From: a virus | Lineage: Duplodnaviria > Heunggongvirae > Uroviricota > Caudoviricetes | IMG/VR virus record: IMGVR_UViG_2639762822_000001 | Strand: one strand, 5' to 3' | Length of the DNA: 64,000 nucleotides | In this document: positions 5,913 through 32,332 of the stretch, one piece after another | How the letters are laid out: the number at the start of each line of letters is the position of its first letter | How positions within the stretch are numbered: position 1 is the stretch's first letter | The notes under the pieces: model-generated | What the model was told of the DNA's origin: nothing | Database searches by the model: none | The model's input: the letters and a program-made list of their open reading frames with translations, nothing else | Made by a program: the position numbers and the translations under genes

Positions 5913-6620
5913 TTAAAACGTCTCAGGGGGCTTCTGACGCGCTACGCTGATGTCGATAACCCCAGCTTTTGGTCGAGGGTCGAAGAGATTTAGCTCTTCA
6001 GCGCTGTGATACTCCGTATCGAACTCCCGATCGACATGGCGGATATAGATGGCTGTGAGCAGGCTGTCATCATTCAGGAAGTGTCCGTAGGATTTGCGGA
6101 TCACTTCACCCACCTTCTCGATTTTTTCCCCGCCTATGCAGAGATGGTTAAATCGACTATGTTTCCGCAACATCTCATCCACCGGGCCGGAGTATACCTT
6201 ATCGACTCTTCCGAACCGGATGATACTTCCCTTTTCAGCCTCGACCAGACAAACGAGCTTGCCAGGCTCGACTCTGTCTTTCCACGTTACACCAGAGCGT
6301 AGCGTGTTGAAGTAGGGTGCATCTAATCCGATGATCGGTTTACGAAATGCCAGCAGTGGAACATACCTGATGCAGCTGTTCAGGTGAAAGTGAGCACCGG
6401 CATCATGTAATTTTAAGCGAGCCTCATTGATAGGGCATTTCGATGCTATGCCGCAAAGGTCACAGAGTAGCTTCAGCTTGTTCAGGCTACTGTTGGACTC
6501 AATAGTGTATGAACCGTCTTCAAGACGGCGAACCCATCGCGTGCGTTTAAGATCCATTTTTGCTTTCTGATAGTGATTGTCGGTGCCACGATAACTTACA
6601 AGGCGCACCGATGTTTGCAA
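5913..6620 (-). CDS. hypothetical protein (N-terminal Cys/His cluster, possible PUA/ASCH-like C-terminus)
   Basis: 235-aa ORF; CDLCGIASKCP...HDAGAHFHLNSC metal-binding-like cluster; no confident family. Confidence 0.45.
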   Translation of the reverse strand: MQTSVRLVSYRGTDNHYQKAKMDLKRTRWVRRLEDGSYTIESNSSLNKLKLLCDLCGIASKCPINEARLKLHDAGAHFHLNSCIRYVPLLAFRKPIIGLDAPYFNTLRSGVTWKDRVEPGKLVCLVEAEKGSIIRFGRVDKVYSGPVDEMLRKHSRFNHLCIGGEKIEKVGEVIRKSYGHFLNDDSLLTAIYIRHVDREFDTEYHSAEELNLFDPRPKAGVIDISVARQKPPETF

Positions 6621-7299
6621 ACGCCTGTTTTACTTATTCCCATTATTCACAGGACCGATCCAATAATAAGATCCCCAGAGAGATCATACAGAAGATCAAA
6701 AGAGATCCCCGATCGTCTCCAGCCCTTGGGGTTACTGGTCTGAGAAGGGTTTACTATCCACTATGGGGAGGAAAGTAACCTCTGTAGAGAGCGTAATAAC
6801 CGCTGTGGGTAGCAAAACAACCTCGCTGGAGAGCGGCTACTATCCACTGTAGAGAGTAGAACAGTATGTCTTCCCTGAATAACTACATGCCTGTAATTTT
6901 TGCTCATATAGCTGATTTACAAAGATAAATGCCAAATCCTGCCAGCAAAAATTCTGTTTCAGACACAATTTCTCCCCAGAGAGGGCGGCCAACCTCGCTC
7001 TGCAATTGCCTGATTTTTATAAACAGGCCCGATCCAGTAATTCAGATCCTAAAGAGAACCTAAGAGACCCACAAAGACCCAAAAAGATCCCCGCACCCCG
7101 CAAACCCTTATCGTGTCTGGCTTTAAGGATGATCGTTATCCACTATAGAGAGCAAATCAACCACTGTAACGAGTAAGACAACCACTATGGAGAGCAGAAA
7201 AACCACTATAGACAGTGTATTAACCGCTATGTTGAGTGATACTATCCACTATAACCAGTAAAAGACGCTGCCTGCGGCTACGCATTAGAGACTATCTGG
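6621..7299. promoter_or_regulatory. plasmid-type replication origin: GATC clusters, AT-rich spacer and 11 iterons (about 22-bp phase, consensus A/TACCACTRTAGAGAGC) upstream of repA
   Basis: Iterons at about 6755, 6777, 6797, 6817, 6839 and 7137, 7158, 7180, 7202, 7224, 7245; 6 GATC in 6650-6720 and 4 in 7030-7100; iteron core TATCCAC resembles a DnaA box. Confidence 0.65.
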
Positions 7300-8355
7300 A
7301 TGAGCGAAAACGACAATAAAAACATTGCGATAAGCGAAGCATTTTCCGAAACAGACAAAAAAACCGGCGAACTTGTTACGTTAGTTCCTAACACCAACAA
7401 CACAGTCCAGCCCGTTGCTCTCATGCGTCTAGGACTCTTTGTACCCACGCTTAAATCCACAGCAAGGGGTAGAAAGGGACAAATGGTCTCAATGGATGCC
7501 ACAGCTGAACTCAAACAACTTTCTCTGGCCAAAGCCGAAGGGTATGAGGACATACGGATCTCCGGGATGCGCCTGGATATGGACAATGACTTCAAAACCT
7601 GGGTCGGCATCATTCATGCCTTTGCCAAACACAAGGTAGTTGGCGACACTGTCACGTTATCGTTTGTCGAGTTCGTCAGGCTTTGCGGCATCCCGACTGC
7701 AAGGTCATCAGCGAGGCTGCGTAAGCGTCTTGAAGACTCTCTCAACCGTATTGCCACAAACACCATCAAGTTCCGAAGCAAAGGCTCTGAAGAGGTTTAC
7801 GTAACGCACCTGGTGCAAACAGCGAAGTACAGCACCAAGAAAGACACAGTCGAGCTGAAGGCTGATCCTAAAATTTTCGAACTCTACCAGTTCGACAAAA
7901 AGGTCCTTCTTCAACTACGAGCGATCAACGAGCTTTCCAGAAAAGAATCCGCGCAGGCGCTCTACACTTTCATCGAAAGTTTGCCTCCTGACCCGGCGCC
8001 TATCTCAATGGCCCGCTTACGCGCCAGGCTCAATCTAACCAGTCGCACCATTACCCAGAACGCGACAGTCAGGAAGGCGATGGAGCAGCTGCGGGAGATT
8101 GGCTATCTCGACTACACAGAAGTGAAACGCGGTAGTTCTGTTTATTTCATTATCCACTATAGACGGCCAAAGTTGCGTCCGGCTCAGATACCGGTCAAAG
8201 CCGGGCCAGACGAGCCTGAAGATAATTTCCCTGATGAAACTCAGGAGGACATCATCGATGTTGTCCCGGAAGAAAAAGAATGCAAGATGGTCATGTTGAG
8301 CAAAGAAGAACTGGCGATTCTCGAAGAACTGCGTAAGGCAAAAGCGCGTAAATGA
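7300..8355 (+). CDS. repA: iteron-binding replication initiator RepA
   Basis: 351-aa plus-strand ORF flanked on both sides by arrays of the same iteron; P1/F-like repA-iteron architecture; the last iteron overlaps the promoter region. Confidence 0.7.
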
Positions 8356-8935
8356 CCTAACCGCTGTAGAGAGTAAAAGGCTCGCTAACCACTGTAGCGA
8401 GCCTTTTTTTATTCATAATCTGCCATCCGCTGTAGTGAGCAGCAGACCACACATCCTATCCACTGCAGGCAGTAAAGGGACTCAGGGCTGTTTATGTTAG
8501 TATTCGCAAACATAGACGTGTCACGGGCTGCGGAGTTAGTGGTCACTGGGTAGCGGGGTAGTCGCACTATCCACAGTGGATATCTTGGCCCCTCATCCTT
8601 TAACTAACCACTATAGAGAGCATACGCGGGTGATCGATATTACCAACCACTATGGGGAGTAGATATCCGCTGAAAACAGTAAAGGGTTACTCCCCATAGT
8701 GGATACCTGCTGGCGGGCGCAGTTTTCCACTCTCTATAGTGGTTGTTCATCGAGAATGAACGTCTGTTTACTCACTACAGTGGATAGATTTCCCGGCTAA
8801 CACGGCTTTACTCACTACAGTGGTTGGATCGCCAATCGTGATGGCACTCTACTCTCTACAGTGGATATGAGTGGGGTACCACGCGGTGAGCTAATTACTC
8901 ACCGCAGTGGTTAGTGCTATCAGTGGATGTTCTTA
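8356..8935. repeat. downstream iteron array in both orientations (incA-like copy-control locus)
   Basis: About 14 copies of CCACTRTAGAGAG and its reverse complement CTCTCTAYAGTGG; includes the palindromic TATCCACAGTGGATA at about 8566. Confidence 0.65.
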
Positions 8936-9132
8936 AGTAAACCCCAGAGCGTTCCGGCCTTTTTGGTGAGCTTTCCTGTTTCCGGATCGTACATGCGCCA
9001 CTCCCGCCTCTGATGGACAATGTACCCATCTTCACGCTCAAGTCGTTCCAGCGCACCGGTTTGTTTAAAGCCCTTTGCCCGCCAGTAGCCACTTGCTTTT
9101 TCGATTTCCAGACCTGCCAGCGTAACTGCCAT
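8920..9132 (-). CDS. hypothetical small protein
   Basis: 70-aa ORF, last gene of a small three-gene minus-strand cassette. Confidence 0.35.
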   Translation of the reverse strand: MAVTLAGLEIEKASGYWRAKGFKQTGALERLEREDGYIVHQRREWRMYDPETGKLTKKAGTLWGLLKNIH

Positions 9133-9467
9133 TAACCAACCTCCTTGCAGTCATCGAAAAGATAGCTCGCGTCTTTTACGTGAACGCCATAAAAATCACC
9201 GGACTTGTTATAAATAAATTTATCCTCGCCGGTACCAGAATATTTCCCATCACGTTTGATCAGGGTTGGGGAAGACAAGACACGATCATCACGAACGACA
9301 TAAAACTGATCCCCACTGTCGACGACCATTGCCCCGTATGACGCCCTCATAACGTTTGAGATGCTGCCATTTTTTGTTTCTGCTACAGACATTGCACATT
9401 CATAGACGCGTGTCTCAGCGCAAACAGGCTGTATCAGCAATAATATTGCCAGGCCAATCTTCTTCAC
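9132..9467 (-). CDS. secreted/periplasmic hypothetical protein
   Basis: GTG start; N-terminal signal peptide MKKIGLAILLLIQPVCA. Confidence 0.45.
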   Translation of the reverse strand: MKKIGLAILLLIQPVCAETRVYECAMSVAETKNGSISNVMRASYGAMVVDSGDQFYVVRDDRVLSSPTLIKRDGKYSGTGEDKFIYNKSGDFYGVHVKDASYLFDDCKEVG

Positions 9468-31783: not shown

Positions 31784-31870
31784 TTGGCGGAAGGTAATGG
31801 AATCGAACCATCACCGCGCTAGCAGTGAGACGGTTTTCAAGACCGCTTGAGCACCATGCTCCCTACCTTC
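31784..31870 (-). tRNA. tRNA-Ser (anticodon UGA), class II with long variable arm
   Basis: Acceptor GGAAGGT/ACCTTCC, anticodon arm GCGGT-CUUGAAA-ACCGU, T-loop TTCGATT, 3' GCCA; 87 nt. Confidence 0.7.
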
Positions 31871-32122
31871 CGTTATTTAGTGTGGTGGCCGGCGCTGATC
31901 TCCGGCATAACAACCCGACTTAAATTCGCGACTTTAAATCGGTTCCTCCGTTTGTTCACTTCAGCCCGGAGTTAGCAACCTCAGTCACTCACCGATATGC
32001 CTATCAGTGGCGCGCATCAGCCTGCGCATTCACCACAACGGAAAGAGCACTGCATGACGTTTGCACGGACTTACGACTTTCGTGGCAGTCTCGGCGGTTC
32101 TCAATGCTCTTACCTGTTGTGT

Positions 32123-32255
32123 TGGTGCCGGTTAACGGACTCGAACCGTTGACCTCTGGCCTAACATCGGATCGTTGTCATTGACCAGCCATGCTGTCTA
32201 CCGAAGTAGAAACGATGCTTTGGCTCTCGCGCTCTACCAACTGAGCTAAACCGGC
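32123..32255 (-). tRNA. tRNA-like gene with extra internal sequence (possibly disrupted tRNA-Asn(GUU))
   Basis: Canonical 5' half GCCGGTT-TA-GCTCAGTTGGTAGAGC and 3' half AGGTC-AACGG-TTCGAGT-CCGTT-AACCGGC-A-CCA with a perfectly complementary acceptor, separated by about 57 extra nt that include a UUCG-tetraloop hairpin. Confidence 0.35.
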
Positions 32256-32257
32256 AT

Positions 32258-32332
32258 TGGCGATGATGGGTGGATTCGAACCACCGACCAGTTGATTAAC
32301 AGTCAACCGCTCTACCACTGAGCTACACCATC
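32258..32332 (-). tRNA. tRNA-Asn (anticodon GUU)
   Basis: GATGGTG-TA-GCTC-AGTGGTA-GAGC-G-GTTGA-CTGTTAA-TCAAC-TGGTC-GGTGG-TTCGAAT-CCACC-CATCATC-G-CCA. Confidence 0.8.

Follow-up and report, generated by a model that had tools for sequence, protein, structure and literature searches.

The plasmid replicon of phage P1 is annotated as an ordered series of elements, namely a tandem DnaA site (TTATCCACATTATCCACT), five Dam heptamers, five incC iterons that hold the repA promoter PrepA, the repA gene, and nine incA iterons. The incC iterons are spaced by 21, 21, 21, and 22 bp, and the incA iterons, three direct followed by six inverted, by 30–41 bp. In RepFIB, the rep gene has 21-bp repeats on both sides, an origin set upstream and a control set downstream. 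The plasmid is displaced by the control set alone, consistent with Rep-mediated pairing, and the upstream set belongs with the origin (PMC11983097). The RepFIA replicon of F (ori2/incB-repE-incC) has origin iterons and a second set downstream of rep, which inhibits by Rep-mediated pairing (PMC11983097). For Yersinia pestis pMT1, the cloned replicon cures the plasmid (tabulated in PMC6199537). Here, we analyze a replicon of this family in a 64,000-nucleotide stretch of DNA (the window) from the IMG/VR virus record IMGVR_UViG_2639762822_000001 (Caudoviricetes), in which the DNA upstream of repA carries two copies of the origin module instead of the single one of P1.

The distal module, M1 (6600–6861, plus strand), consists of a left flank, DnaA boxes, GATC heptamers, a spacer of 35 nt between the heptamers and the iterons, and five iterons. 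The proximal module, M2 (6975–7263, plus strand), has a left flank, a DnaA-box-like site, heptamers that in part lack GATC, a spacer, and six iterons. The two can be aligned with 71% column identity, from the pre-box segment through DnaA box, heptamers, and spacer to the iterons. Judged from this alignment, the entire origin module has been duplicated in tandem to give the two upstream blocks, M2 being the paralogue of M1, a relation that went unremarked in an earlier note on this DNA, made from its letters alone. The modules are separated by 113 nt of unduplicated sequence (6862–6974) without a counterpart after M2, and the larger interval 6860–7016 is 60% A+T and shows a near-neutral rate of evolution. 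The non-coding segment 6581–6633, which precedes the DnaA boxes of M1, is 72–92% identical to relatives, and a paralogue of it precedes the M2 box. Being both conserved and paralogous, this segment extends the repeated unit to about 35 nt past the DnaA boxes. We have found no description of a doubled origin in the searchable literature, the coverage of which does not include the original pMT1 (1998) and RepFIB (Saul et al. 1989) papers, so that an earlier mention is possible.

The iterons were located with a position-weight matrix built from 11 upstream copies and iterated, with which the 64 kb were scanned on both strands. The scan yields 26 sites with 17.7 bits or more, every one of them inside 6753–8915, while the best site elsewhere in the window reaches about 15 bits and 100 shuffled windows contain 7 sites in total at or above 17.7 bits. 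An independent repeat search recovers the same iteron families on both sides of the 351-amino-acid open reading frame. The repeats, which have a AATAACCACTGTGGAGAGTAA-like consensus, are therefore real. In M1, five direct copies on the plus strand start at 6753, 6774, 6795, 6816, and 6839 (6753–6859; 17.7–26.4 bits), with spacings of 21, 21, 21, and 23 bp. The M2 array, the presumed repA operator, comprises six direct copies on the plus strand, starting at 7135, 7156, 7177, 7198, 7219, and 7241 (7135–7261; 18.7–26.3 bits), with spacings of 21, 21, 21, 21, and 22 bp. The 11 iterons that the earlier note had placed in two blocks upstream of repA are thus recovered as 5 + 6 copies, but their phase is 21 bp and not the 22 bp given there.

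At the left of the M1 GATC cluster, tandem DnaA boxes, TTATTCCCA (one mismatch) and TTATTCACA (an exact TTATNCACA), occupy 6634–6651 on the plus strand, the second of them (6643–6651) being the sole exact TTATNCACA in the 64 kb. They are followed by six GATC-bearing heptamers (6655–6717), with GATC at 6657, 6670, 6682, 6694, 6704, and 6711, that is, at spacings of 13, 12, 12, 10, and 7. The segment 6657–6714 is the only 80-nt stretch in the window with more than three GATC sites, for which the Poisson expectation is about 0.002 window-wide. In M2, the DnaA-box-like site TTATAAACA (7017–7025, plus strand, one mismatch) again lies left of the GATC cluster, and the heptamers (7029–7093), spaced by about 10–14 bp, carry GATC at 7031, 7045, and 7086, GAAC at 7056, and GACC at 7066 and 7076. 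A fourth GATC of the M2 region, at 7131, is located outside the heptamers, beside the first M2 iteron. The six and four GATC sites counted previously are accordingly found, in 6657–6714 and 7031–7134, respectively, although the count of four (7031, 7045, 7086, and 7131) is by itself insignificant. The description of these short stretches as AT-rich is right in direction but describes only a mild enrichment, 54.5% A+T against 50.8% for the window. The M2 box is exact in most SSU5-like relatives (TTATACACA or TTATCCACA), and by this comparison the derived C-to-A change found in the M2 box of the window and of one related locus (L086) is a lineage-specific weakening.

The presence of separate DnaA boxes at 6634–6651 and 7017–7025, as in P1, bears on a further proposal, according to which every iteron contains the DnaA-box core TATCCAC and the RepA and DnaA sites are fused. 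This motif is present in 10 of the 26 iterons, the remainder reading AACC[A/G/T]C, and it is found in none of the iterons of the Xenorhabdus, Morganella, and most Pantoea relatives despite their having the same architecture. A fused RepA/DnaA site in every iteron was therefore rejected, the proposal being unsupported as stated. A narrower pattern is real, in that SSU5-like replicons begin and end each upstream array with an iteron of the TATCCAC type (T...T in the first array and T....T in the second). In addition, positions 7136–7144 read TTATCCACT, which is also the second half of the DnaA site annotated in P1. Shared descent would account for the pattern as well as putative DnaA binding would.

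The doubled architecture is widespread among the relatives. A total of 119 related loci, with RepA 63–100% identical, were collected from GTDB genomes and IMG/VR, and a de novo iteron finder was applied to those with enough upstream sequence; the finder failed or under-counted in about 12 loci and in F, and those loci are excluded from the counts. Two upstream arrays of about five iterons each, 230–400 bp apart and each following a GATC cluster or its remnant, are found in 59 of 97 unique loci, including Y. pestis pMT1 (L008) and loci of Kluyvera, Buttiauxella, Rahnella, Erwinia, Pantoea, Xenorhabdus, and Morganella. The doubled-origin clade includes SSU5-like phage-plasmids and pMT1 together with plasmids or megaplasmids from Rahnella, Erwinia, Pantoea, Xenorhabdus, and Morganella. 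A single module is found in a Pantoea group (L063–L085), which has a shorter RepA match. Within the SSU5-like clade, the identities are 0.86–0.94 for M1 against M1 and 0.84–0.93 for M2 against M2, compared to 0.71–0.80 for M1 against M2. As the identity within each type exceeds that between the types, the duplication is older than the SSU5-like clade, and the copies are not being homogenized. At greater depth, when the two modules are compared with the origins of P1 and F, pairwise identities over 125 nt lie between 0.65 and 0.87 and are too noisy to distinguish an ancient duplication from recombination of two origins; the usable result of this comparison is confined to the within-clade identities.

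The third codon positions of repA, which are 52–64% identical between the window and five relatives, were used as a near-neutral yardstick. The inter-module spacer, with 55–64% identity to the same relatives, falls within this range, and the repA leader has 42–55%. The corresponding values for the parts of the modules are 74–97% and 75–97% for the M1 and M2 heptamers, 72–94% for the M1 DnaA boxes and 78–89% for the M2 box, and 81–89% and 72–82% for the M1 and M2 iterons. Both modules are thus far above the third-position identity, which indicates that both are under purifying selection and that neither is a decaying relic. The two differ in their GATC content. Among the 59 unique two-module loci, M1 has 4–7 GATC sites (mean 5.6) and M2 0–5 (mean 3.4), M1 having the higher count in 55 of the 59 and never the lower one. 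In Xenorhabdus and in three further loci (L018, L024, and L084), M2 is left with 0–2 GATC sites while M1 retains its own. The M2 heptamers without GATC are kept as such in 23 of 24 unique SSU5-like sequences, the exception being L111.

The anatomy, homology, and conservation established here, read by homology with P1 and RepFIB, lead to the following proposal for the mechanism. RepA monomers would fill the 21-bp-phased iterons of an origin module and host DnaA would occupy the tandem boxes at its outer edge, upon which the duplex would open in the GATC heptamers lying between boxes and iterons. The Dam methylation state of the heptamers, acting via SeqA on hemimethylated sites, would limit re-initiation. 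By binding the repA-adjacent iterons, RepA would repress its own gene, and the 14 iterons downstream of repA would titrate RepA and handcuff the origin iterons, resulting in low copy number and incompatibility.

For the roles of the two modules, the reading that we favor, though tentatively and with somewhat less than even confidence, is a division of labor in which M1 would be the principal firing origin and M2, which adjoins repA, would act mainly as operator and cis-pairing partner. M1 is assigned the role of principal origin because it always has the full GATC set and, in the window, the sole exact DnaA box; its complete and invariant GATC set also argues against a pure titration role. Several observations weigh against this assignment. 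In its heptamers and DnaA box, M2 is conserved to the same degree as M1, which a mere operator would not need and which favors an origin role for M2, and most close relatives have an exact M2 box. That M2 acts as operator is taken from its position, the array occupying the place of P1 incC, which holds PrepA, and a scan of the plus strand in and near M2 for a sigma-70-like repA promoter finds none. Moreover, the 59 loci share kinship, and the 55 of them with more GATC sites in M1 do not represent 55 independent events.

The same conservation of M2 and its exact box in most close relatives support an alternative in which M2 is both working origin and operator, as in P1 and the RepFIB of F, and M1 is an auxiliary cis element for copy control or incompatibility. 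M1 would then pair with M2 or titrate RepA, DnaA, and SeqA, as a third iteron locus comparable to the extra iterons that RK2 or IncFIB(K) has upstream. M2 indeed lies where P1, F RepFIB, and IncFIB(K) have their only origin, its heptamers resemble the F RepFIB origin, and IncFIB(K) provides a case of extra iterons upstream of the origin with no second GATC cluster. However, M1 keeps the complete apparatus of DnaA boxes and GATC heptamers, with a GATC count equal to or above that of M2, which would be unneeded for simple titration, and in several lineages most of the M2 GATC sites have been lost while those of M1 have been kept. We consider this alternative somewhat unlikely.

We have also considered that M1 and M2 are alternative functional origins served by one RepA, M1 with its six GATC sites being strongly controlled by Dam and SeqA and M2, with three in its heptamers, less so. 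Every part of the P1 origin is present in both modules, both are under purifying selection, the duplication is older than the SSU5-like radiation, and the M2 heptamers that lack GATC are kept in that form throughout the SSU5-like clade, which suggests a maintained difference rather than decay. On the other hand, two close origins that share their iterons should handcuff one another, and the number of M2 GATC sites varies widely among lineages. The arrangement, which we regard as rather improbable, would if true provide robustness across hosts or physiological states.

Across the clade, M1 always retains a full GATC set of the Dam/SeqA type, and M2 retains conserved heptamers without GATC. The clade-wide doubling could reflect either a differing methylation control of the two copies or a split between firing and autoregulation, which P1 combines in one array. 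This interpretation seems doubtful to us, but if it holds, two differently methylation-controlled origins or split roles would constitute a new variant of iteron control. The question of which module fires, and of the Dam/SeqA difference between them, bears on the setting of the copy number in the prophage state, and the same doubled architecture is present in Y. pestis pMT1 and in many clinical plasmids of about 110 kb.

The repA gene (7300–8355, plus strand) encodes a 351-amino-acid initiator of the Rep_3 type, identified by Pfam and BLASTP homology. The Pfam match to Rep3_N is clear (E 4.4e-12, 47 bits, with a cut-off of 22.4), and that to Rep3_C, at 20.7 bits, is slightly below the cut-off of 21.1. 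RepA is about 90% identical to the RepA of SSU5, 60% identical to the Rep of F RepFIB over 328 amino acids (E 2e-143), the C-terminal tail included, and 48% identical to P1 RepA over 280 amino acids (E 9e-95; E 5e-80 by tblastn). BLASTP detects no similarity to the RepE of F, and searches of NCBIfam and PDB with the RepA sequence gave no matches. One iteron-like site, ATTATCCACTATAGACGGCCA, falls within the gene (8149–8169, plus strand, 17.9 bits), where it codes for IIHYRRP. It is found in many relatives and sits at the point where the homology to P1 RepA stops and the C-terminal extension starts. The conserved peptide IHYRRP, also present in F RepFIB, may partly explain the site.

A relaxed promoter scan returned only poorly spaced matches, two in the stretch of M1 DnaA boxes and heptamers and one in the inter-module spacer. 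On the minus strand, the only promoter-like site of 6500–9000 is located inside the M2 iterons (7142–7170), reading GTTACA-17-TATAGT with 9 of 12 matches. It is probably a chance occurrence, because the iteron core read backwards gives the –10-like hexamer TATAGT. The replicon contains no match to the IHF consensus WATCAANNNNTTR, and the window as a whole only two, which is the chance level. An Rfam search of 6300–9300 at gathering thresholds gave no match, and thus no known antisense RNA.

Downstream of repA, an incA-like control array of mixed orientation spans 8356–8931, with 14 strong iterons (8356–8915) and a weak one. According to the matrix scan, the direct copies start at 8356, 8384, 8422, 8455, 8603, 8642, and 8662, and the inverted ones at 8564, 8687, 8727, 8768, 8808, 8849, and 8895; the weak site (8911–8931) is also inverted. 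This agrees with the approximately 14 copies of the earlier note but not with its view that they are mostly in the opposite orientation, there being seven direct and seven inverted copies (eight inverted with the weak site). The spacing is irregular, 20–46 bp, and is about 40 bp in the inverted run. Just past the repA stop, a terminator-like hairpin with a 13-bp stem and a T run (8375–8407, plus strand) encloses the iteron at 8384–8404, so that RepA binding and termination could interfere mutually. At about 210 nt downstream of repA, within 8564–8584, two head-to-head half-iterons form a perfect palindrome, ACTATCCACAGTGGATAT (8566–8583). In other iteron plasmids, Rep dimers bind such palindromes as operator, whereas the present one is located downstream of repA.

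The full replicon has close relatives among public records. Over 2,351 nt, it is 98% identical to the Salmonella Concord plasmid pAR-0407-3 (NZ_CP044180.1), a 106.6-kb non-mobilizable plasmid typed as IncFIB by MOB-suite/PLSDB; this typing is that of the plasmid record. An identity of about 81%, over at least 80% of the 2.35-kb query, is seen with a further 129 plasmid records of about 105–140 kb, which come from Enterobacter, Salmonella, Escherichia, Yersinia, and Citrobacter, and the upstream region alone gives 335 plasmid records with at least 80% coverage. Phage SSU5 matches the whole 2,351 nt with about 81–82% identity, both upstream modules included, and the ori–repA–control region is collinear with SSU5-like genomes at 81–98% identity across this length. 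The segment 6643–6723 alone matches about 2,600 further IncFIB-type plasmids with 82–85% identity. The replicon type is hence already known, the near-identical public records carrying both the repA annotation and the IncFIB typing. As a replicon it is ordinary, and the sole trait beyond the textbook is the conserved tandem doubling of the origin module.

We conclude with high confidence that the region is the theta replicon of the plasmid state, that is, of prophage maintenance, of an SSU5/pHCM2/pMT1-like phage-plasmid and belongs to the P1/RepFIB family. The assignment to such a phage-plasmid follows from the neighboring genes in the 98%-identical record, which are SSU5-like phage genes: an SbcCD-like nuclease, a recombinase, dnaE, a DnaB-like helicase, a ligase, and a tail fibre. 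The replicon thereby indicates that the window comes from an SSU5/pHCM2-like phage-plasmid held at low copy by a P1/RepFIB-type initiator. This has a bearing on replicon typing, incompatibility, and the design of curing cassettes, for which the downstream iterons would be the part to use (PMC11983097).

As the element is a phage-plasmid whose replicon is surrounded by phage genes for replication and recombination, the possibility that the region is instead the origin of lytic replication was also evaluated. P1 uses another origin, oriL, distinct from the plasmid origin, for its lytic replication. The combination of RepA and the iteron layout is that of low-copy plasmid replicons (P1 oriR and RepFIB), and the same replicon occurs in non-phage megaplasmid contigs of Pantoea and Erwinia of up to about 800 kb. 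The element's own dnaE and DnaB-like helicase, moreover, fit a separate lytic mode. A lytic origin was rejected on these grounds as extremely unlikely.

By comparison with NZ_CP044180.1, the part of the window from about 1 to 49,400 carries dnaE, a DnaB-like helicase, a DNA ligase, nrdA, a 5'-3' exonuclease, a recombinase, and an SbcCD-like nuclease, and nearly all of these phage replication genes are on the strand opposite to repA. Such a replication gene set of its own implies a separate lytic replication mode. Elsewhere in the window, Rfam reports a tRNA match of 46.7 bits at 32126–32255 (minus strand), between tRNA-Ser(tga) at 31785–31871 and tRNA-Asn(gtt) at 32258–32332. The match has 72 nt in the anticodon-arm region, compared to 15 in the model, and no ARAGORN call; a tRNA interrupted by an insert or intron would fit, as would a disrupted gene.

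Set against the P1 replicon, the locus shows the incC–repA–incA organization that the earlier note had proposed, with the same order of parts, a RepA 48% identical to that of P1, and DNA similarity in the DnaA/GATC stretch, where the window has GATCCAATAATAAGATCC...AGATCCCCGATCGT and P1 GATCCAATAATCAGGTCC...AGATCCCTGATCGT. The tandem boxes at the outer edge, the GATC heptamers (six, compared to five in P1), the spacer of about 38 bp, and the iterons with a 21-bp phase are all P1-like, as is the downstream array, with its direct copies first, its inverted copies afterwards, and its irregular spacing. The iterons themselves differ, being AACCACTRTRGAGAGTAA-like here and GATGTGTGCTGGAGGGAAA in P1 (IncY specificity), and a different incompatibility specificity is therefore expected. 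In P1, five direct iterons directly upstream of repA hold the promoter, whereas here there are arrays of 5 + 6 copies with a second module upstream, that is, two origin modules instead of one. The downstream iterons number 14 instead of nine, RepA has a 58-amino-acid C-terminal extension, and no parAB is annotated beside the array in the 98%-identical record.

Among the RepFIB replicons of F, P307, and pO157, the F initiator is the closest characterized relative of RepA (60% identity). As in RepFIB, the rep gene is flanked on both sides by repeats of about 21 bp, and the heptamers of M2 are similar to the origin of F RepFIB (aggcccgatccagtaa.t.agatcc). However, F has a single module of DnaA box and GATC cluster, in contrast to the two found here, its iteron sequence is unlike, and it resides in a conjugative F-type plasmid, while the present replicon is in a phage-plasmid. 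F RepFIA shares the control logic but is without a GATC heptamer cluster of this type. The IncFIB(K) plasmid pBIC-1a of K. pneumoniae (L126) has one GATC cluster, and beyond it, 380–610 nt upstream of rep (2140–2400 of that locus), four extra iterons of mixed orientation, which constitute a partial parallel to the doubled module. The replicons of SSU5, pHCM2, and pMT1 belong to the same lineage as the present one, with 5 + 5/6 iterons upstream of repA and about 7 + 7 downstream of it, and relative to the SSU5-like replicons the window, L086, and pAR-0407-3 form a diverged sub-lineage.

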